Of a DNA stretch of 8,566 nt, positions 1 to 8,566 are shown piece after piece (positions within the stretch are counted from its first letter, which is position 1; every line of letters begins with the position of its first letter). Both the position numbers and the translations under genes were made by a program. Source of the DNA: a virus (taxonomy: Duplodnaviria; Heunggongvirae; Uroviricota; Caudoviricetes). Location: IMG/VR virus record IMGVR_UViG_2671180710_000015. One strand, 5' to 3'. Below the pieces are notes generated by a model. It had not been told where the DNA came from. It was given only the letters and a program-made list of their open reading frames with translations, and made no database searches.

Positions 1-927
1 TCAGCTTTTCGCCAGAACGGTGACGGCCTTATCGAGTTTTTGCCATCCGCAATAGGTGATTGCCCTGAACGCTGTAGCGTCATTCTGGAAAAGGCTAACC
101 GTCCCTGATTCGGTTTTTATTACCGCCTCATCAGTTGGGGTTATAACCGTGGCTTCAACGTTAATAATCAGCTTTTGAGCGTCTATCAGCATCATGCGAT
201 CCGCCTGTTCGCTCACAATTACCGGTATTCTCAAAAGCTCTATCTGCCAGAACTCAGCATCAGTAAGCTGTAAGGCGTTTTCTACGGGCAAGATTAGCGA
301 CGACGTGGCAAGCGTGTTACCGTTCGCTATGTGCTTTTTGAAAAGCTCTATGAAGTTTTCGGCCTCATCAGCACCATTAAGCACGCCCTCAGGGGATACG
401 CCCGCCACCTCCTGGTCACTGGAAAGAAATTTTTTATCTATTTCTTTCACCGATTCCGATGTGATCAAGTCTCTGATCGCTGAATTGGCACCAGGGGTGC
501 TAAATTTGATTAGCTCGTTATTCAGCATCACAATAGCGCCAAGTTTGCACAGTTTTAGCGCACTTTCGTTTACTTCTCCCTCTTTGACAGGGATTTCTTC
601 GGCTTCTTTAAGCCATTTACTACCCTTGCCTGATATTGACTGCAATTTTGCGCCAAACGGAAGATTCAGCGCGCTGCTGATTAGCTTGCCTGGTACAGAC
701 TGCGAAAAAATATACTCGCCAAGCTCTCTTACTATCGGCTCTGCCACCAGCGACGGCATATTATCCGTAGTCATTCCGGCAACAATGGATTTTTCAAGAA
801 ATTTCGATACTGCCGGATCATTTTTTTTCGTCATTTCAATTGCGTCTGCATGGCTGAATTTACACGATGTAAGCACGCTGGCGGCGCGAACTGCCGACAC
901 GCCTTTCATGTTTTTAGAAATCATCAT
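1..927 (-). CDS. Major capsid protein, HK97-fold (Phage_capsid-like), 308 aa
   Basis: ATG at 927-925 lies 6 nt after AGGAGG; the stop is at 3-1, the window edge. By-eye match to the Phage_capsid family pattern: KWLKEAEEIPVKEGEVNESALKLCKLGAIVMLNNELIKFS, then FLSSDQEVAGVSPEGVLNGA, then C-terminal LFQNDATAFRAITYCGW. No long N-terminal delta/scaffold-like segment is evident. Confidence 0.85.
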   Translation of the reverse strand: MMISKNMKGVSAVRAASVLTSCKFSHADAIEMTKKNDPAVSKFLEKSIVAGMTTDNMPSLVAEPIVRELGEYIFSQSVPGKLISSALNLPFGAKLQSISGKGSKWLKEAEEIPVKEGEVNESALKLCKLGAIVMLNNELIKFSTPGANSAIRDLITSESVKEIDKKFLSSDQEVAGVSPEGVLNGADEAENFIELFKKHIANGNTLATSSLILPVENALQLTDAEFWQIELLRIPVIVSEQADRMMLIDAQKLIINVEATVITPTDEAVIKTESGTVSLFQNDATAFRAITYCGWQKLDKAVTVLAKS

Positions 928-1086: not shown

Positions 1087-1575
1087 TCAGTGTTTTAAGC
1101 CAGTTGGTGGCTTAGGGATGGGGAACCGATTTGAGGAGACATTAGCGGCATTGAGTTTTTTAACCTCTTTTTTCCCAATGCTGCCGATCTTGCGGTGGGT
1201 GAACTGGGCCAGCTTAAACGCGGCATCTAAAGCCAGTTTTGGATCTGTGTCCATGTTGTCAATCAGTATCCTGCCCATTGCTTTGATGGGGTCGGGTAGG
1301 CCGTTATCCATCATCTCAATGGTGTTAATTGATGCCCGTTCCGGTGTAACTTTTTCGGTAACTTTCTTTGTAACTTTTTTCGGTTTTGTAACCTGAAAAG
1401 TTACATCAGAAGTTACAGCCTTAAGATACTTTTTCACCTCCGGATCATTGGATAGCTGCCAGCCTTTAACCCTTGCAGTCTTTTCGCTGTATCCCGCATG
1501 TATCGCGGCTTCCGTTGGATTTGTGCCCTTTGATAACGCATCAGCAAACCGCTTTTTTTTGGTCGTTAATGCCAT
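1087..1575 (-). CDS. terS: Terminase small subunit (Terminase_2-like), 162 aa
   Basis: The internal Met of the 201-aa track ORF (ATG 1575-1573) is preceded by GAGG 7 nt upstream. The N-terminus MALTTKKKRFADALSKGTNPTEAAIHAGYSEKTARVKGWQLSNDPEVKKYL matches the characteristic TerS HTH signature (..F...Y...GN.T.AA..AGYS.KTA...G..L). The upstream 39 codons of the track ORF cross repeats and a GC hairpin and look non-coding. Confidence 0.85.
   Translation of the reverse strand: MALTTKKKRFADALSKGTNPTEAAIHAGYSEKTARVKGWQLSNDPEVKKYLKAVTSDVTFQVTKPKKVTKKVTEKVTPERASINTIEMMDNGLPDPIKAMGRILIDNMDTDPKLALDAAFKLAQFTHRKIGSIGKKEVKKLNAANVSSNRFPIPKPPTGLKH
1344..1416. repeat. Cluster of six GTAAC/GTTAC-core repeats inside terS (candidate TerS recognition / pac-type repeats)
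   Basis: GTAAC sits at 1346, 1358, 1370 and 1388, each followed by a T-run. The inverted form (AAAAGTTAC / GTTAC) sits at 1400 and 1412. GTGTAACTTTT at 1344-1354 is identical to the two copies upstream of terS. The repeats encode the VTKKVTEKVT repeat in TerS. Confidence 0.6.
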
Positions 1576-1597
1576 GCAAAAACCTCGTTTTGAGGGG

Positions 1598-1620
1598 GTG
1601 TAACTTTTCGTGTAACTTTT
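1598..1620. repeat. Tandem GTGTAACTTTT x2 (12-bp period), 23-45 nt upstream of the terS start codon
   Basis: Exact 11-mers at 1598-1608 and 1610-1620, with a third exact copy at 1344-1354. Confidence 0.75.
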
Positions 1621-1647
1621 TTGAAAAGCAAAATTTTCTATGAATGA

Positions 1648-1706
1648 GACGGGGGGCGGTGTCCAGGGCGATCGACTTTCCGGCCGGAACACTCCCCCCC
1701 CCTGTC
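1648..1706. other. GC-rich dyad-symmetric element between the 53-codon ORF and terS (candidate cosN-like / structured RNA element)
   Basis: GAC-GGGGGG-CG-GTGT (1648-1662) pairs with ACAC-T-CCCCCCCCC-T-GTC (1689-1706). The interior contains the palindromes CGATCG and TCCGGCCGGA. No U-tract follows on the minus strand, so it is not a canonical terminator. Confidence 0.4.
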
Positions 1707-1866
1707 ATTGCTCACCGAGTAACGAGATCAGGCCTTCAACTTCATCACTCAGCTTGTTTATTCGTGTCTCAAGCTCTGCGATCTTTTCCATTAATGGCGC
1801 TATCGTGTCTCTTGTTTCCTCGCCAATGGCTTTAATGATGCTTGCCTCGCGTTCTGTGATAGCCAT
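1705..1866 (-). CDS. Hypothetical 53-aa coiled-coil-like protein (MAITEREASIIKAIGEETRDTIAPLMEKIAELETRINKLSDEVEGLISLLGEQ)
   Basis: Hand-translated and below the ORF-track cut-off. The ATG at 1866 is preceded by GAGG 7 nt upstream and lies 2 nt after the stop of the upstream ORF. The sequence shows a heptad-like pattern. Confidence 0.5.
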   Translation of the reverse strand: MAITEREASIIKAIGEETRDTIAPLMEKIAELETRINKLSDEVEGLISLLGEQ

Positions 1867-1868
1867 TG

Positions 1869-2063
1869 TTATTCCTCACCTGTTGCAATGCCCAGGCGTT
1901 CGCGTAACAGCACGCGAGCAAGATGGCCTACTGTTGGCGTGGCGGCTCTGCCGTATATACCAGCTTCATTCATCCGGCGAATAACATCGAATTGAAGTTT
2001 TTTAAGCTCGTTTAGGATCTCGTGATCAATCATCACGGTAGCGCTTTGCTTTATCTGTTCCAC
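1869..2063 (-). CDS. Hypothetical 64-aa protein, possibly ribbon-helix-helix-like; first gene of the putative late operon
   Basis: GTG start at 2063-2061 with AGGAGG 7 nt upstream. The strand-helix-helix pattern is ATVMIDHEILNELKKL...PTVGHLARVLLRERL. The fold assignment is a by-eye inference only. Confidence 0.6.
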   Translation of the reverse strand: MEQIKQSATVMIDHEILNELKKLQFDVIRRMNEAGIYGRAATPTVGHLARVLLRERLGIATGEE

Positions 2064-2181: not shown

Positions 2182-2454
2182 TTAGCTGTCTGGGTAATTA
2201 CGCCATACTTCATCGCCTGCACCATCTATACCCATTTCAGCATAAGTGCGATCGACTGCCTTTCTCAGGTCTCCGAAGTTATCCGGCGGCTCCGGTGGCT
2301 TCTGTGCCTTCCTGGAACATTCCAGCCGTCGCATCGTAACCTGATACCGTTCCTTGTCTGTCTCCACCAGCTGCATGACTTCACCCCATCGCGCCGCCGC
2401 CCTCCGGTAAAATCCTTTCGCCTCGAGTTCCTCCGCTATGCGGTCATGTACCAT
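2182..2454 (-). CDS. PerC-family-like transcriptional activator, 90 aa
   Basis: Start chosen at the internal Met (ATG 2454-2452), 10 nt after the ssb stop and preceded by GGGGGTGAGG. The N-terminus MVHDRIAEELEAKGFYRRAAARWGEVM resembles the PerC/Pch signature (..AE.LE..G.YRRAA.RW..VM). The longer track ORF (to 2562) would overlap ssb by 98 nt. Confidence 0.6.
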   Translation of the reverse strand: MVHDRIAEELEAKGFYRRAAARWGEVMQLVETDKERYQVTMRRLECSRKAQKPPEPPDNFGDLRKAVDRTYAEMGIDGAGDEVWRNYPDS

Positions 2455-2464
2455 CCTCACCCCC

Positions 2465-2863
2465 TCAGAACGGAATACCATCACCGTAAGGGTCATCGCC
2501 TCCCGCTGGTGGCTGATTACCCTGTGTGCCTGTGGTTTTGCGTCTGTTCCCGCCTCGGGCACTGATTACGCTGTCTGCGATAACCTGCCAGCCCTGCCGC
2601 GTTTCGCCGTTCTGGCCTGTCCACTGGCTTACCTGCATCGTGCCGGATACGCTGGCAACATCGCCTTTTTGATGTTTAGCCAGGAAGTCGGCCTGTTTGC
2701 CAAATGCGATGACCGATAACCATAACGTCGCCTGTCCGTCCTGTGCCTGGCTGCATGGCAAAGATACCGCCATACGCGCCAGCGTCATCGGTGTGCCCTT
2801 GCTGGTCTGTTTTACCTGCGGGTCGTCCACCAGCCGCCCGTAAGCGGCTATCTGTGCCGTCAT
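2465..2863 (-). CDS. ssb: Single-stranded DNA-binding protein, 132 aa
   Basis: OB-fold pattern (GRLVDDPQVKQTSKGTPMTLARMAV...LWLSVIAFGKQADFLAKHQKGDVASVSGTMQVSQW). A Gly/Pro/Gln-rich linker precedes the canonical acidic tip ending DGIPF. The start overlaps the upstream stop as ATGA. Confidence 0.9.
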   Translation of the reverse strand: MTAQIAAYGRLVDDPQVKQTSKGTPMTLARMAVSLPCSQAQDGQATLWLSVIAFGKQADFLAKHQKGDVASVSGTMQVSQWTGQNGETRQGWQVIADSVISARGGNRRKTTGTQGNQPPAGGDDPYGDGIPF

Positions 2864-3123: not shown

Positions 3124-3314
3124 CTCACTTTTTCGCCTCACTTTTTCAAGCGTCTCACTTCGTCGCAGTTGGGATTTTCGGTTTTTCTATGTGTGTGTTT
3201 CATAAGTATTTTTTTACCCCCTCACTTTTGAGGATGTATACAGGTCGAAAAGTGAGGGAGAGCGGGCTAATTTTGGCCCTCTTTCTATCCCCCTCGCTTT
3301 TGCTCCTCACTTTT
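3124..3314. repeat. Putative replication origin: seven (C)CTCACTTTT iterons in two clusters flanking an A+T-rich spacer
   Basis: CTCACTTTTT occurs at 3124 and 3137, CTCACTTC at 3154 and CTCACTTTTG at 3221. An inverted AAAAGTGAG lies at 3248-3256, CTCGCTTTTG at 3293 and CTCACTTTTA at 3306. The A+T-rich stretch gtgtgtgtttcataagtattttttta lies at about 3190-3217. The element is directly 3' of the helicase gene. Confidence 0.7.
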
Positions 3315-4710
3315 ATAGCGGCGCTACATCATCCCCATCGATACGAATAACCCCATCTTTTTCCAGCTTGTACAGCCAGCGCCGGAAGTTTTTCATTTCA
3401 TACCCCAGCTTTTTCATGTCATCACGTAACAGCGGGATCGTGCACTTGTCGCCGTTCTGTGTGCGTGAACGGATGCACCCCCATAGCGCGGTATGGTTTT
3501 CCGTCTTGTTCCCTGCCTCCTCGATGCGCTCCAGTTCAACAGGAGGGCGCGGATCATCCACCACCACCAGCGACGTGATTAATTCACCGTCAGCGTCGGT
3601 AAAAAGCTCCACCACGCGTAAGTCATATGCGGCTTCTTTGAGTTCCTCCGCGTCCTTCATTTTGGTGCATGAGATAACCAGCGCTTCGCTTCCTGCGTCC
3701 TCCCTGCGTATCCGGTATTCAGCATCCAGCGAAGCACGAAATGCACTGGAACCGCGCGCGCCTTTCGTCTCATCCTTGCCGGAATGGTGAACCACCAGCA
3801 CCGTGGCCCCTGTGCGTCGTTTAAGCTCGTCACAACCACGGATAAACGCCCCCATATCACGGGAATCATTTTCATCATTCCCACCAAAGCAACGCGCCAG
3901 AGTATCCAGAATAATCATGCGTACAGGTTTACCCGTTTCCCGCTCCACCTGACGGGCAGCGATAACCATTTCATCAACATCAAGCGGGGCAGCCGGAAAG
4001 ATGGGACGGTTTACCAGATACAGATTTTTCACCTGTTCACCGTGCACAACCTCCCAGGCTTTTACACGACGCGGAACGCCGATACCGCCTTCACCAACCA
4101 CATAGAGAACCGCACCATGCGCCACCCTGCGGCCTCCCCACTGGCGGCCCGTGGAAACGTGACACGCCCACGATCCGGCAAGGAATGATTTATAGGAACC
4201 GCTCGCCCCGTATATGCTGCAAAGCGATACCGCCGGAATAATTCCCTTCACCACGTAATCAAGCTGCGTGTCGTATCCGGCAGATCCCACGCTCATTGGT
4301 AGCTTGGTTTTTCGCTGGTGGCTCAGGCTTTCCCCGCGTTCCCATGTCTCCCTAAGCCGTGGAAGCTGGTCGCTCCATTCCTCCAGCAATTCGAAATTTT
4401 CAGAAAACAGGCGCGCTTCCTGGACTCCTGCGATTGCCAGTTTCGTGGCGATGGTTAACAACTGCACTTCGTCAATATTTCCGGCACGTATCACTTTCGC
4501 CCTGTATCGCCCATCATCCACAATCTGGAGGTTATCCAGTTCGCTTAACTGATAACGCCCCAGGTAAACGGGAGGGACTGGATCGCCTGCTTTTTTGGCC
4601 TGTGCAATGATGTAGTACTCTGCAAATGAGTGAGCATTATCACCCGCAAAAATAACCGCTTCGGTGTGTTTATCTTTCGGTAACAGTTTTACGTTCGGTG
4701 CCAGTTTCAT
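3313..4710 (-). CDS. Replication initiator/helicase, RepA-like RecA-fold ATPase (AAA_25-type), 465 aa
   Basis: The central domain has Walker A-like GASGSYKS, then GAVLYVVGEGG, Walker B MIILDTL and the sensor block VLVVHHSGKDETKGARGSSAF. The roughly 150-aa N-terminal domain has no recognised fold. The roughly 80-aa C-terminal domain (..FRRWLYKLEKDGVIRI) looks winged-helix-like. No primase motifs were seen. Confidence 0.85.
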   Translation of the reverse strand: MKLAPNVKLLPKDKHTEAVIFAGDNAHSFAEYYIIAQAKKAGDPVPPVYLGRYQLSELDNLQIVDDGRYRAKVIRAGNIDEVQLLTIATKLAIAGVQEARLFSENFELLEEWSDQLPRLRETWERGESLSHQRKTKLPMSVGSAGYDTQLDYVVKGIIPAVSLCSIYGASGSYKSFLAGSWACHVSTGRQWGGRRVAHGAVLYVVGEGGIGVPRRVKAWEVVHGEQVKNLYLVNRPIFPAAPLDVDEMVIAARQVERETGKPVRMIILDTLARCFGGNDENDSRDMGAFIRGCDELKRRTGATVLVVHHSGKDETKGARGSSAFRASLDAEYRIRREDAGSEALVISCTKMKDAEELKEAAYDLRVVELFTDADGELITSLVVVDDPRPPVELERIEEAGNKTENHTALWGCIRSRTQNGDKCTIPLLRDDMKKLGYEMKNFRRWLYKLEKDGVIRIDGDDVAPL

Positions 4711-5006
4711 TTTTTACCCCTGAATCCGTTAATCATGGTTTTCAGCTTCTGGATGTTTTCCCGTGCTCTGGCGTTGCTGGTGGGCACGTTATGCGGCGCG
4801 GTCTGTACCAGAGAAAAATCACGCCGGAACTGATAAACAGGCATCACGCAATCATATTCGTAACCTTCACGGCGGTAAGTTACGCACCGTCCCGCCACGC
4901 CCTTAATCATTACCGTGCCGCCGTACTGGTCGCGGTAAATATCACCGCGCGTAAATTTAGGGTGAGTGTTGCCACTGGCAGTTAAGCCAGAATATTTAAG
5001 TTTCAT
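4707..5006 (-). CDS. Hypothetical 99-aa protein, DUF4222-like by eye
   Basis: GGAG lies upstream of the ATG at 5006, and the stop overlaps the helicase start as ATGA. The segment GDIYRDQYGGTVMIKGVAGRCVTYRREGYEYDCVMPVYQFRRDF resembles the small DUF4222 prophage proteins. The family call has low confidence. Confidence 0.55.
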   Translation of the reverse strand: MKLKYSGLTASGNTHPKFTRGDIYRDQYGGTVMIKGVAGRCVTYRREGYEYDCVMPVYQFRRDFSLVQTAPHNVPTSNARARENIQKLKTMINGFRGKK

Positions 5007-5429: not shown

Positions 5430-5501
5430 AAATTTACCTCTCTATAGTGTTTGTGGTTAGACGCCCTGCATGTGTTCCAGCACTGTGGGGCGTTGTTTTT
5501 T
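5373..5501. repeat. Copy A of a duplicated leader module (5' end of the Icd-like gene, its SD, and a terminator-like hairpin)
   Basis: It shares ordered blocks with 6081-6240 on the plus strand. The blocks are CGTTTGTGTGTGT (5385-5397), CCAT (5426-5429), TTACCTC (5434-5440), TGGTTAGA (5454-5461), and a GCCC..GGGC stem with a T-run (5462-5501). It also contains the hairpin CACACAAA-ggccg-TTTGTGTG (5374-5394). Confidence 0.7.
5462..5501 (+). terminator. Plus-strand terminator-like hairpin antisense to the leader of the leftward operon
   Basis: CGCCCUGCA (5462-5470) pairs with UGUGGGGCG (5484-5492); two of these pairs are G-U. TTGTTTTTT follows. No upstream plus-strand promoter could be identified by eye. 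Confidence 0.4.
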
Positions 5502-5502
5502 G

Positions 5503-5547
5503 GTGCAAGTCACCTTGAAATCTAGGTTACTTTTAGGTGACTTGCAC
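5503..5547. promoter_or_regulatory. Perfect 13-bp inverted repeat (candidate operator) in the divergent control region
   Basis: GTGCAAGTCACCT (5503-5515) and AGGTGACTTGCAC (5535-5547) are separated by 19 bp. The arms bracket the -10 and overlap the spacer and -35 of the proposed leftward promoter. Confidence 0.6.
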
Positions 5548-5572
5548 TTCAAGTCTTTTTTTATTTTTTTTT
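5524..5572 (-). promoter_or_regulatory. Proposed leftward operon promoter (P-left) with an UP-like A-tract
   Basis: On the minus strand, TTGAAG (5552-5547), a 17-nt spacer and TAACCT (5529-5524). It is preceded by A9-T-A7 (the complement of the T7-A-T9 tract at 5556-5572). Confidence 0.4.
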
Positions 5573-5583
5573 CTCCGTATACT
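5556..5583 (+). promoter_or_regulatory. Proposed rightward promoter for the first RHH-like gene
   Basis: TATACT at 5578-5583 lies 30 nt upstream of the ATG at 5614. The -35 position falls in the T7-A-T9 tract, so there is no consensus -35. Confidence 0.3.
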
Positions 5584-5613
5584 GAACACCACCTAACAGT
5601 AAGGAGAACAGAG

Positions 5614-5793
5614 ATGCCAACAGGTACAACCAACAACAAGTCACAACAAAAAACTGCTAGAGTACCTCTAGACGTTTTAAGCGAAATGAATTTGGTAAAA
5701 GAAGAAAACGAAACAGACGCACAATTTATCGTTACTGCCATGCGCGGCGAAATCAAACGCCGCCAGCGTCGCAAGGCCAAAGAATCAGAATAA
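5614..5793 (+). CDS. Ribbon-helix-helix-like small DNA-binding protein, 59 aa (candidate island repressor)
   Basis: AAGGAG (5601-5606) lies 7 nt before the ATG. The pattern ARVPLDVLSEMNLVKEENETDAQFIVTAMRGEIKRRQ fits a beta-strand, helix, helix (Arc/CopG-like) layout. The gene is divergent from the replication operon. Confidence 0.6.
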   Translation: MPTGTTNNKSQQKTARVPLDVLSEMNLVKEENETDAQFIVTAMRGEIKRRQRRKAKESE

Positions 5794-5802
5794 TCACTAT
5801 CA

Positions 5803-5829
5803 GCGCCGTGGTGTGAGGTACTACGGCGC
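5803..5829 (+). other. 10-bp stem hairpin 10 nt downstream of the RHH gene stop
   Basis: GCGCCGTGGT (5803-5812) pairs with ACTACGGCGC (5820-5829), including one G-U pair. The weak U-rich tail is ATTGCTTT. It could be an attenuator or an mRNA stabiliser. Confidence 0.4.
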
Positions 5830-5850
5830 ATTGCTTTACAGGGCAGTACC

Positions 5851-6078
5851 ATGACCAACAACACACTATCACCAATACAAGACACGCAAACGCAAGATGA
5901 TGAAATCATCCGGCAAAGGCAGTCAGAAGCCTGCGCCAGACTTGAGGAAGAACTAACCAGAACAAAAATACCACCACCAGCGCCGCGCTTAGTGCCACCA
6001 GAAAAATTTGCCCTTGAAGATTTTGTCGATAAATACCCACGGCGGCTTAAATCCGGCAAAAACCGACCGCCAGGATGA
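5851..6078 (+). CDS. Hypothetical 75-aa protein (weak call)
   Basis: The ORF is in the same frame as 5614-5793, separated only by one TAA and 19 sense codons. The SD is weak, rare codons are frequent and a Pro-rich centre (KIPPPAPRLVPPEK) is present. No family was recognised. Confidence 0.35.
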   Translation: MTNNTLSPIQDTQTQDDEIIRQRQSEACARLEEELTRTKIPPPAPRLVPPEKFALEDFVDKYPRRLKSGKNRPPG

Positions 6079-6080
6079 GT

Positions 6081-6240
6081 GCACAAAACCGAACTATGAA
6101 ACGGATTATTCCGTTTCCGGGGCGTTTGTGTGTGTATAAAGAGTAAGCTATGCTCTTTTATAGCCATAATCGTTACCTCAATTAATGGTTTGGTTAGAAG
6201 CCCGTTGGTGTTCATAGCGCCAGCGGGCTTTGCTTTTTGT
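6081..6240. repeat. Copy B of the duplicated leader module; on the plus strand it is a candidate sRNA / structured 3' UTR
   Basis: It carries the same ordered blocks as copy A: CGTTTGTGTGTGT (6123-6135), CCAT (6164-6167), TTACCTC (6173-6179) and TGGTTAGA (6191-6198), then a terminator. An extra perfect hairpin GAAACGGA-ttat-TCCGTTTC (6098-6117) is nested inside an outer CACAAAAC/GTTTGTG stem. Confidence 0.65.
6199..6240 (+). terminator. Rho-independent terminator, plus strand
   Basis: GCCCGUUGG (6200-6208) pairs with CCAGCGGGC (6220-6228), followed by UUUGCUUUUUGU. Confidence 0.6.
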
Positions 6241-6258
6241 GTTGATTGTGTGTAATAT
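6230..6258 (+). promoter_or_regulatory. Possible promoter of the second RHH-like gene
   Basis: TTGCTT (6230-6235), a 17-nt spacer and TAATAT (6253-6258). TGTAAT/ATTACA motifs lie at 6251-6256, 6277-6282 and 6288-6293; the last two flank the SD. Confidence 0.35.
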
Positions 6259-6297
6259 GTCACTACACATAAATACATTACATGAGGTGTAATTAAC

Positions 6298-6477
6298 ATG
6301 TCAATACACAAAAACGAAAGGCGTGGTAATCCTCCGTTCCAGTTCCGTTTAGATCCTGACTTACGGGAAAAGATGGAAAAGGCACAACAACATGACGGCG
6401 ATGATTCTCTTGCTGCCTGGATAAAGCGAATAATCCGCAAAGAATTACAGCAACGCGGCATAGAACCCAAAGGGTAA
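6298..6477 (+). CDS. Ribbon-helix-helix (Arc/CopG-like) small DNA-binding protein, 59 aa
   Basis: Hand-translated and below the track cut-off: MSIHKNERRGNPPFQFRLDPDLREKMEKAQQHDGDDSLAAWIKRIIRKELQQRGIEPKG. GAGGTG lies upstream of the ATG. It has the classic RHH layout of FQFRLDP strand, LREKMEKA helix and SLAAWIKRIIRKEL helix. Confidence 0.65.
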   Translation: MSIHKNERRGNPPFQFRLDPDLREKMEKAQQHDGDDSLAAWIKRIIRKELQQRGIEPKG

Positions 6478-6566
6478 TTACATTGCCCACCAGCCTGATA
6501 GCGGCTATCATTCCCGTGCTTATGTTTGGGATCACATAAGGCGCAGCAGGTTAATTGTTCACAAGG

Positions 6567-6592
6567 GCGTTCCGGCAACGGGGCGCTTTTTG
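6567..6592 (+). terminator. Rho-independent terminator (plus strand), convergent with the alpA 3' end
   Basis: GCGUUCCG-GCAA-CGGGGCGC is an 8-bp stem with two G-U pairs and a GNRA loop, followed by UUUUUGUU. On the minus strand no U-tract follows, so alpA read-through is possible. Confidence 0.6.
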
Positions 6593-6621
6593 TTATGTTC
6601 ATCGTGTTATGCCTCACACCA

Positions 6622-6828
6622 TTACGCAGCCGTTCCGCGTGCTTCCTGCTCACGTTCTTTCATCCATGCGATTACGTCTTCCTCATACCATCCGCGACGG
6701 CGTAAACCAACGCGAAAACCCTGCGGAAATTCTCCGGCGTTGATCATGCTTTGAAGCGTGCTGTCTGCCTTGATGTGGATAAGTTTTTTTACTTCCTGGC
6801 GAAAGATGACTTTTTTGATTGCTTCCAT
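6622..6828 (-). CDS. alpA: AlpA-family transcriptional regulator / excisionase-like HTH protein, 68 aa
   Basis: Typical Phage_AlpA pattern: FRQEVKKLIHIKADSTLQSMINAGEFPQGFRVGLRRRGWYEEDVIAWM. AAGGT lies 8 nt upstream of the ATG. Confidence 0.85.
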   Translation of the reverse strand: MEAIKKVIFRQEVKKLIHIKADSTLQSMINAGEFPQGFRVGLRRRGWYEEDVIAWMKEREQEARGTAA

Positions 6829-7324: not shown

Positions 7325-8566
7325 CTAAACGGCTCGGATACCCCTTTTACCACTGGCGAGGGTTACGCCCGTCGCCGCAGCCTCGACAAATTCGCCCCAC
7401 CAGCGCATAAGCACCACGCGTTTTTCTATGTAGTTGCTCCGGTTGTATGCCCGTCTCACTTCGTTAGTGTCGACGTGGGCAAGTGCGGCCTCGATTACGT
7501 CCGGCTCGAATCCTTCCTCGTTCGCTGCTGTACTGAATATGGCGCGTAATCCATGAGACACCAGCACGCCAGCGAACCCCATGCGTCGTAATGCTGCGTT
7601 TGCTGTCTGGCTGTTCATTGGCTGCCGTGGGTCTTTCAGACTCGGGAAAACATAATCGCGGTGGTGGCTGATTGGTTTCATGGCCTCCAGCACCGCCATA
7701 GCCTGACCGGAAAGTGGGATAACGTGATCCCTGCGCATCTTCATGCGTCCGGCGGGTATCGTCCAGCGTTGCGCGTCCAGGTCGATTTCATCCCACCGCG
7801 TTGATGACGCTTCGGCGGGACGGGTTACGGTCAGTAACTGCCATTCAATCAGTAATCTGGTCTGCCGTTCTGTTGCCGATACTGATAAAGCCTGCATAAG
7901 CTCCGGCAACTGTTCGGGGCGGATTGTTGGCATATGTTTTTTTACAGGGGAGGGGAACGCCTTACGCACATTCATAGCCGGATTGGCATCAATCAGCCCA
8001 CTGTTGGCGGCGTAATCCATTACCTCATTAACGCGCTGTAAAACCCGTTTGAGTGTTTCCAGGTTGCCGCGCTCCTTGATGGGGGTAAGCACCTCAACGA
8101 ACCTGCGAGCGGTCAGGGTGTCTATTGGGGTGTTGCCGATGAACGGGAATACATATTTATCCAGCGATCGCCAGATGTCTTTAATCGTGTTGGGGGCCAG
8201 ATTCTGGCTGATTTTCACCTGGTACCATGCCGCCGCCACATTTTCGAACGTGTTCCCTTGTCTTCGGGCCTCTGCCTCTCGTTTTTTCTTCTCATGGCCC
8301 TGCGGGTCAGTTCCGGCACTGATTAACGCTCTGTACTCGCTACGGCGTTTTCTGGCATCAGCCAGGGAAACATCATCAAGCGATCCAAAACTCAGCAATA
8401 TTCTTTTTTTGTCCGATGGCCGGTAGTAGGAAAATCGCCAGAGTTTTGATCCGGACGGTTTGACCAGGAGAAAAAGCCCTCCGCCGTCCTGTAGGGTGTA
8501 TTCCTTTTCCGCTGGTCTGGCTGCTTTGATCTGCACCGTGGTTAATGGGGGTGTTTTTCTCGCCAT
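7325..8566 (-). CDS. int: Tyrosine recombinase/integrase, P4-type (DUF4102 N-terminal arm-binding domain plus catalytic domain), 413 aa
   Basis: The N-terminus LTTVQIKAARPAEKEYTLQDGGGLFLLVKPSGSKLWRFSYY is the classic P4-like integrase signature. Catalytic motifs are present: TVTRPAEA (Arg), HGLRAIF (His-x-x-Arg) and AHVDTNEVRRAYNRSNY (His and Tyr). The ATG is at the window edge. Confidence 0.95.
   Translation of the reverse strand: MARKTPPLTTVQIKAARPAEKEYTLQDGGGLFLLVKPSGSKLWRFSYYRPSDKKRILLSFGSLDDVSLADARKRRSEYRALISAGTDPQGHEKKKREAEARRQGNTFENVAAAWYQVKISQNLAPNTIKDIWRSLDKYVFPFIGNTPIDTLTARRFVEVLTPIKERGNLETLKRVLQRVNEVMDYAANSGLIDANPAMNVRKAFPSPVKKHMPTIRPEQLPELMQALSVSATERQTRLLIEWQLLTVTRPAEASSTRWDEIDLDAQRWTIPAGRMKMRRDHVIPLSGQAMAVLEAMKPISHHRDYVFPSLKDPRQPMNSQTANAALRRMGFAGVLVSHGLRAIFSTAANEEGFEPDVIEAALAHVDTNEVRRAYNRSNYIEKRVVLMRWWGEFVEAAATGVTLASGKRGIRAV

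Follow-up and report, generated by a model that had tools for sequence, protein, structure and literature searches.

The stretch of viral DNA analysed here (the window, 8566 bp; IMG/VR record IMGVR_UViG_2671180710_000015) carried all of its real genes on the minus strand and was classed, from its gene content, as a phage satellite of the phage-inducible chromosomal island (PICI) type. The analysis centred on the gene for the small terminase (TerS), terS, and on the DNA around its start codon (ATG at 1575-1573). The first-pass annotation of the window had placed a candidate packaging-initiation region here, composed of an 11-mer found three times, in tandem upstream of the ATG and once inside terS, of five further GTAAC or GTTAC cores, and of an adjoining GC-rich dyad. 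The repeats were confirmed as described. The 11-mer GTGTAACTTTT was exact at 1344, 1598, and 1610, near copies with one mismatch were found at 1368 (+) and 1396 (-) and with two mismatches at 1408 (-), and the further cores started at 1358, 1370, and 1388 (GTAAC) and at 1399 and 1411 (GTTAC). The two exact tandem copies were located 23-47 bp upstream of the ATG, and tandem copies were spaced by 12 bp. Inside terS, two inverted copies were followed by direct copies, mostly with the same 12-bp phasing; these copies encoded AVTSDVTFQVTKPKKVTKKVTEKVTPE, and all six internal cores were in-frame Val-Thr codons. The repeats were strongly clustered, with seven of the nine AGTTAC/GTAACT hexamers of the whole window falling in 1346-1617. 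The biggest 300-bp hexamer cluster in 2000 dinucleotide-preserving shuffles of the window held four (observed, seven), and 5000 shuffles of 1300-1720 alone gave a mean of 0.13 hexamers and a maximum of three. The features are collected in Table 1.

Table 1. Features of the window, with the packaging locus first and the remaining genes below it
Feature	Position	Strand	Remarks
terS, small terminase, 162 amino acids (aa)	1087-1575	-	Terminase_2 PF03592, E = 4.8e-11; phrog_641, E = 6e-44
Conserved core (putative cos core)	1634-1702	-	in gene direction: G-run (1702-1694), ~27 nt, then CGATCGCCCTGGACACCGCCCCCCGTCTCATTCATAGAAAA
Predicted nicking region	1640-1660	.	MAFFT alignment with the HK97 junction, weak
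Upstream repeat 1, AAAAGTTACAC in gene direction	1610-1620	-	copy nearest the core; Stx phages have CAGTTAACAT there
Upstream repeat 2, AAAAGTTACAC	1598-1608	-	spaced 12 bp from repeat 1; terS ATG 23 bp downstream
Inverted internal pair, AAAAGTTACAT and AGAAGTTACAG	1396-1406, 1408-1418	+	GTA-ACT codons (Val-Thr) of terS
Degenerate internal copy, GGTTACAAAA in gene direction	1384-1393	-	retained in no lineages but those of the window, L005, and L091
Three internal direct repeats, 12 bp apart	1368-1378, 1356-1366, 1344-1354	-	read as AAA-GTT-ACx, Lys-Val-Thr
53-aa coiled-coil-like open reading frame (ORF)	1705-1866	-	stop codon abuts the core
Small ORF	1869-2063	-	opens the packaging operon together with the 1705-1866 ORF
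53-aa ORF resembling the TerS C-terminal helix	914-1075	-	phrog_641 positions 89-126
HK97-fold capsid-protein homologue	1-927	-	PF05065; TIGR01554
PerC-family protein	2182-2562	-	PF06069, E = 1e-42
Single-stranded DNA-binding protein (SSB)		-	family match
DUF4222 protein and AAA_25 replication protein	3313-5006	-	ORFs and family matches
AlpA-like regulator	6622-6828	-	ORF and family matches
Integrase	7325-8566	-	ORF and family matches

Farther upstream of the repeats, the GC-rich element proved to be part of a widely conserved core, whose consensus across relatives was a G-run, about 27 nt, and then CGATCGCCC-GGACACCGCCCCCC-TCTCAYGCAGAGAAAAAA. A sensitive search of 1576-1720 against phage records gave 78 matches, nearly all of them Shiga toxin (Stx)-converting or other prophages of enterohaemorrhagic Escherichia coli (EHEC), to which the window was 81-84% identical over 1622/1634-1702. 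In Stx2 phage 1717, the match fell between terS and the HNH endonuclease gene, and in a Hafnia phage (L007) the core was likewise downstream of HNH and upstream of terS. The core of the window was also upstream of terS, but the HNH gene was replaced by a 53-aa ORF. The core was present in all 60 related IMG/VR terS upstream sequences long enough to contain it, as well as in more distant relatives (Salmonella, Hafnia, metagenomes, and further islands of E. coli), and its distance from the first repeat was fixed across genera. Extra copies of the core were found elsewhere in the genome in 15 of the 15 satellite-bearing genomes listed. The dyad proposed in the first-pass annotation was present with both of its palindromes, CGATCG at 1669-1674 and TCCGGCCGGA at 1679-1688, but its arms were imperfect (75% complementary for 1651-1670/1681-1700 and 86% for 1643-1656/1696-1709), TCCGGCCGGA was not conserved in the alignments of the relatives, and no compensatory pairs that would speak for a hairpin were found across seven lineages. 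In some lineages the C-rich arm had decayed while the G-run stayed without a matching change. Folded as RNA, the dyad reached -41.7 kcal/mol, with a modest z of -1.7 against shuffles. The core was thus conserved as primary sequence rather than as a hairpin. A reading of the dyad as an intrinsic terminator or structured RNA was rejected, with no terminator called, this z-score, no compensatory pairs, and no Rfam match. The length of the G-run (1694-1702 and its equivalents in L011-L085) ranged from 7 to 11 bases among near-identical alleles, which may reflect true hypervariability or an artefact of sequencing. In several EHEC PPompW prophages (LC567822 and others; compared with L002:3290-3600, at about query position 274), the IS110-family element ISEc20 was inserted inside the core, and this insertion would be expected to disable the packaging site of those prophages.

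The repeats were then compared with the type of TerS encoded beside them. Eight related loci from Escherichia, Salmonella, Hafnia, and metagenomes, with TerS proteins 52-66% identical to that of the window, were recovered by exact-protein contig look-ups and from IMG/VR; a profile search of genome contigs with the TerS alignment returned pattern matches, none of which was confirmed as a terS relative. Some of the relatives were satellites (SSB, small ORFs, terS, and capsid homologue) and others were true phages (HNH, terS, and terL, the gene of the large terminase, TerL). In all eight (L005, L007, L009, L010, L088, L089, L090, and L091), AAAAGTTACAC was located in non-coding DNA about 36 bp before terS, as a single copy or a 12-bp tandem pair, with five copies over 200 bp in L005, and the motif appeared again inside terS at +156 to +224. 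The Stx phages carried GTTAACAT repeats directly after the core, where the satellite has AAAAGTTACAC, and the first repeat aligned column for column in both types, AAAAGTTACAC in the satellite standing opposite CAGTTAACAT in the Stx phage. Five GTTAAC sites were found at -196 to -82 relative to the terS of the Stx phages and no AGTTAC near it; the satellite cos region held no GTTAAC, the sole copy in the window being at 4454. The two motifs differed essentially by one base of spacing, AGTTA-CA in the satellite against AGTTAACA in the helper. AAAAGTTACAC went, in nine lineages, with a TerS clade that has a Val-Thr linker, and GTTAACAT went with the Stx-phage TerS. When the regulatory and replication module was exchanged, as in the O111:H11 island L001, the motif stayed with the packaging module; it changed with the TerS type. 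One core was thus combined with two mutually exclusive sets of repeats and TerS types, which is the pattern expected of TerS recognition sites.

The TerS of the window was made up of an N-terminal helix-turn-helix domain (residues 1-56), a disordered linker (57-84, pLDDT < 50), and C-terminal helices, as judged from an AlphaFold2 (AF2) model. The helix-turn-helix matched the SPP1/SF6-type family profile (PF03592, above the cut-off), and profile matches in the PDB were obtained to the small terminases of Pam5 (E = 8e-4) and SF6 (3ZQP, E = 6.5e-3). Compared with the Stx-phage TerS, the satellite protein was 46% identical overall, 67% in the C-terminal core, and 58% in the DNA-binding domain, whereas the linkers were unrelated. 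The 67% identity of the C-terminal cores is compatible with both proteins engaging the same TerL. Adaptation of the satellite C-terminus to the helper was considered as well and set aside; the C-terminal core was 61-65% identical to that of the Hafnia and Salmonella relatives, and the difference from 67% was too small to call.

The internal copies of the motif were written in the codons of the disordered linker, so a DNA signal can persist inside terS. The first two Val-Thr pairs of the array were encoded by GTA-ACT (the inverted motif) in every lineage that keeps Val-Thr there, and the later ones by AAA-GTT-ACx (the direct motif), with direct copies reading GTT-ACA and all lineages (8 of 8 and 7 of 7) having GTT; the other invariant Val of TerS was encoded by a mixture of GTT, GTA, and GTG. 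At invariant residues, pairwise codon identity averaged 0.86 within the linker and 0.50 outside it (permutation p = 0.005, for five columns from related, non-independent lineages). Between E. coli alleles, eight substitutions were found between the two repeat clusters and none within them, and two natural terS alleles (P0003 and P0004) were shorter by exactly 8 or 4 codons (24 or 12 bp), equal to two or one 12-bp units of the internal array (1344-1378). The constraint on synonymous sites in the linker is supportive rather than conclusive of DNA-level selection on the internal copies. Such selection had been proposed at the outset, and it gained support from the retention of the motif in the non-coding DNA of the eight relatives and from the orientation-specific fixation of synonymous codons in terS. 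In this way the homologous loci were inspected for loss of the repeats at the DNA level with the peptide kept, and the outcome favoured the proposal.

From this comparison with relatives, which supported the packaging-initiation candidate, we consider it likely that 1344-1702 forms a two-module cos packaging site of a PICI-type satellite, in which a nicking core shared with helper phages is joined to private TerS repeats. The first module (1634-1702) would be a nicking core analogous to lambda cosN and common to HK97-like, HNH-dependent helper prophages; the helpers here would be Stx-converting lambdoid phages, whose large terminase and HNH nuclease would cut the core. The second module, analogous to lambda cosB, would be an array of AAAAGTTACA(C) sites, with two tandem copies between the core and the terS start and five or six more 160-230 bp into terS. 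The satellite TerS would bind the AAAAGTTACA array through a ring of its N-terminal helix-turn-helix domains, and packaging would run from the cut toward terS. The helper TerS would be unable to use the satellite array, and the satellite TerS unable to use that of the helper. Because the helper TerS goes together with another repeat, GTTAACAT, equally far from the core, the satellite TerS would recruit the cutting and pumping machinery of the helper to satellite concatemers only. The first-pass annotation had taken the locus for an element-specific cos or pac site by which the satellite tells its own DNA from that of the helper. Discrimination as such was supported, since the core-sharing Stx prophages have another repeat and a TerS with a different DNA-binding domain; the element-specific part, however, would be the adjoining repeats, and the GC-rich element is what the satellite has in common with the helper. 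Of cos and pac, the HK97/HNH-type context favoured cos and not a headful pac site.

The position of the cut was predicted from the HK97 cos junction, which was assembled by joining the two ends of NC_002167. This junction showed the same layout as the core, with a run of nine G, about 28 nt, and then a CCGCC-rich segment ending in GACCGCCGCCAAA, where the cut separates it from GTTTG. In the weak alignment of the two, the junction corresponded to the end of the C-run, which would put the cut of the satellite at or next to the run 1651-1656. HK97 ends have a 10-nt 3' overhang, the HNH protein gp74 stimulates cos cleavage, and the binding site of the HK97 TerS, a G plus an A-tract, is found 15-29 bp downstream of the cut (PMC11331095). 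A lambda-type cos, in which cosB has the order R3-I1-R2-R1, was rejected, as the lambda cosN GGGCGGCGACCT matched at chance level and the TerS belongs to Terminase_2, not to Nu1. The contigs of L088, which starts at CAGAAAAAAT, and of L090, which starts inside the core, were rejected as physical ends; assembly breaks at G-runs or shared prophage repeats are equally likely, so these ends are not evidence.

Several observations weigh against a two-module cos site. The likeness to the mapped HK97 cos is one of layout more than of sequence, and the HK97 TerS is of a different family (NC_002167 gp1; PMC6739421). No virion-derived phage record ended at the core, all 94 of the 94 matching records being prophage-style with the site internal. 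No HNH gene was found in the window, and dependence on the HNH of the helper is assumed. Taken alone, the DNA-binding domain of the related SF6 TerS has weak affinity for its repeats and discriminates little between sequences; the specificity of that TerS has been attributed to bent DNA (PMC4737164). Because the SF6 domain reads its own repeats poorly, direct read-out of AAAAGTTACAC by the satellite TerS is not guaranteed, and by analogy the A-tract and the 12-bp phasing may matter as much as the GTTAC core. As for the internal copies, the few columns and related lineages of the codon test count on the same side; the L005/L091 lineage has lost both inverted copies while gaining upstream ones, L090 is without one direct copy, and the copy number varies among near-identical alleles.

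These losses also bear on a narrower explanation, in which only the upstream non-coding repeats are functional and the internal array is a by-product of a slippage-prone, low-complexity Lys-Val-Thr linker. The changes in copy number by 12-bp units among near-identical alleles, the loss of the inverted copies in one lineage, the lack of internal repeats in the Stx-phage TerS, and the disorder of the encoded segment would all fit such slippage. Nevertheless, the orientation-dependent codons (GTA-ACT against GTT-ACA) were kept in lineages in which other synonymous sites were scrambled, and the internal copies share the full AAAAGTTACA(C) motif with the non-coding ones. This explanation is rather unlikely, although it stays in play as a partial alternative and is the least improbable of the rivals. 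A role in regulation rather than packaging would make the repeats an operator, for autoregulation by TerS or for a late-gene regulator, and the dyad a terminator or attenuator between the 53-aa ORF and terS. The closeness of the upstream repeats to the start codon suits an operator, competition between a small terminase of the SPP1 family and RNA polymerase at the promoter of the terminase itself has been proposed (PMC4737164), and the dyad begins right at a stop codon and folds with the energy given above. However, the packaging operon begins at a promoter-like site (2126-2098) preceded by a terminator-like site (2175-2158), which puts the repeats and core in its interior, and no site of either kind was called at the dyad or repeats. 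The stem is not followed by a T-run, its folding z-score is modest, its C-rich arm degrades with neither compensatory pairs nor a matching change of the G-run, and the motif travels with the packaging module and changes with the TerS type. Regulation as the sole role is very unlikely on this evidence; an autoregulatory role may be compatible with one in packaging.

The remaining explanation, a headful pac site of the SPP1/SaPI kind (SaPI, Staphylococcus aureus pathogenicity island), accepts packaging and differs in how it operates: the repeats would act like pacL and pacR at a pac cleavage site, termination would not be sequence-specific, and the GC-rich element would be incidental. Terminase_2 is indeed the family of the G1P proteins of SPP1 and SF6, phages in which repeats are found both upstream of and inside gene 1 (PMC4737164), so that the two clusters around the terS start mimic SPP1 pacL and pacR, and the satellite TerS proteins characterised experimentally, those of SaPIs, serve pac packaging. 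Against this, TerS proteins of the same clade are encoded in phages directly after the HNH gene and before TerL, HNH is tied to this packaging class in the work on capsid-forming PICIs (cf-PICIs), and HNH stimulates HK97 cos cleavage. Furthermore, the GC-rich core resembles the HK97 cos junction, and in different genera it is conserved and keeps the same distance from the first repeat. A pac site is highly improbable on these grounds, and a cos site with a shared core and private repeats is the preferred reading.

The assignment of the window to the PICIs was based on its ORFs and their Pfam and PHROG matches, which gave an integrase, an AlpA-type regulator, a replicase module, and packaging genes. 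PICIs are described as elements of about 10 kb with an integrase, an AlpA-type regulator, a primase or replicase, and terS and/or a capsid homologue, without tail or lysis genes (PMC10085698), and no tail or lysis genes were found among the family matches of the window ORFs. Among 5426 complete E. coli genomes, 220 carried the packaging module (1-2200) at 96-99% identity; these were mainly EHEC, mostly O157, O26, O111, and O103 strains. In the O111:H11 island mentioned above, which is bounded by chromosomal genes and lies between clpS and cspD, the module was combined with another replication module. The ORF at 1705-1866 occupied the slot held by the HNH gene in phages, and C-termini homologous to its product were found upstream of the core in L009 and L089, relatives from Salmonella and a metagenome. 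No family was found for this ORF or for that at 1869-2063, and an NCBIfam search with the small ORFs and TerS gave zero matches. Downstream of terS, the relatives carried an ORF of 49-51 aa at the same place as that at 914-1075, and in the true phage L088 its counterpart was located between terS and terL; the product may be a packaging accessory or a decoy for the TerS/TerL interaction. The capsid homologue matched the capsid part of these Stx and PPompW prophages at 23% identity, with 97% of its length aligned, and one may speculate, by analogy with Ccm of SaPIbov5, that it is a candidate capsid-size remodeller.

Some other parts of the island are recorded here as well. The PerC ORF as listed runs into the SSB gene, so that the real start probably lies farther downstream; PerC-like genes of PICIs have been reported as silencers of the enterocyte effacement locus (LEE) or as without effect on it (PMC11773190). 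A minus-strand ORF of 398 aa at 5457-6653 had no family match and is probably spurious. This stretch holds small plus-strand ORFs, of which 6298-6477 corresponds to a gene annotated as YlcI/YnfO family in L001. An Rfam scan of the whole window gave no match. Islands with sister terS genes carried adjoining defence or addiction cargo (HigB/HigA and type I restriction-modification in L091, type I HsdR in L005), and the L091 island had no capsid homologue.

The likely helpers are the Shiga-toxin prophages of O157, O26, O111, and O103 strains, and interference with them could affect the production and spread of toxin phages. If the satellite TerS outcompetes the helper TerS for TerL and HNH, the yield of Stx phage would be lower in outbreak lineages. 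With a helper-shared core beside private repeats, the locus offers a model that is testable at base-pair resolution, and it presents a natural case of a DNA signal embedded in coding sequence, in which codon choice is visibly governed by the motif. The specificity module could be transplanted for packaging-selective delivery vehicles.

Among known systems, HK97 (TerS gp1, TerL gp2, HNH gp74) is similar in that the site directly precedes terS and, in the phage relatives, directly follows the HNH gene, in the order of its elements (G-run, spacer of about 28 nt, C/G-rich segment where the cut falls), and in the A-tract-containing TerS site a few tens of bp downstream of the cut, which is predicted here. 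The HK97 TerS, however, is of another family and uses a single 15-bp site, whereas the satellite has a Terminase_2 protein and multiple repeats phased by 12 bp, and the identity of the cores is low. The division into modules resembles the cosQ-cosN-cosB arrangement of lambda and the Rpp-type PICIs such as EcCICFT073. The latter have cosQ and cosN in common with lambda-like helpers and a different cosB (PMC9026076), so that, as in the window, the nicking site of the helper is shared and the adjoining recognition module differs; this module is placed between the nicking site and the first packaging gene, with repeats in both orientations. Unlike the satellite studied here, Rpp-type PICIs are without a TerS and re-programme that of the helper by Rpp at a lambda-type cosN. 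Here, a complete satellite TerS is proposed as the source of specificity, and the putative helpers depend on HNH.

The SaPI TerS_S and the pac sites of SPP1 and SF6 (pacL, pacC, and pacR) share with the window a Terminase_2 TerS with repeats upstream of and inside terS, as well as, in the proposed mechanism, a satellite-encoded TerS homologue that redirects the TerL of the helper. Those systems package by headful from pac, whereas the context here is that of cos and HNH, and the putative cut is upstream of both repeat clusters instead of between them as in the SPP1 and SF6 pac. The cos-type SaPIs (SaPIbov5) and P4 are similar in carrying a helper-type cos and depending on the TerL of the helper, and, for SaPIbov5, on its HNH too; SaPIbov5, like the island in the window, also encodes a capsid-protein homologue. 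They copy the whole helper cos, however, and because the helper TerS is used as well, they gain no packaging preference, whereas only the core is shared here. The cf-PICIs have in common with the window HK97-like, HNH-dependent packaging and a satellite TerS, but they encode capsid, protease, portal, connectors, HNH, TerS, and TerL, and the window only TerS, a small ORF, and a capsid homologue.

Four packaging strategies of satellites are thus on record: a copy of the helper cos, an own TerS with pac, re-programming of the helper TerS by Rpp, and the full capsid and terminase set of the cf-PICIs. In the literature searched, none of the described strategies paired a satellite TerS with a private array of repeats and an HK97-type cos core shared with the helper. 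TerS-encoding PICIs of Enterobacteria have been catalogued by the thousand, and in the same literature their packaging site was not described. It is conceivable, and we suggest it tentatively, that a minimal PICI keeping the nicking core of Stx prophages and swapping the TerS-recognition module, part of which is dual-coded in the terS linker with orientation-dictated codons, represents a fifth strategy. Judged by its sequence, the logic of the site would be familiar from the Rpp-type PICIs and the SaPI TerS.

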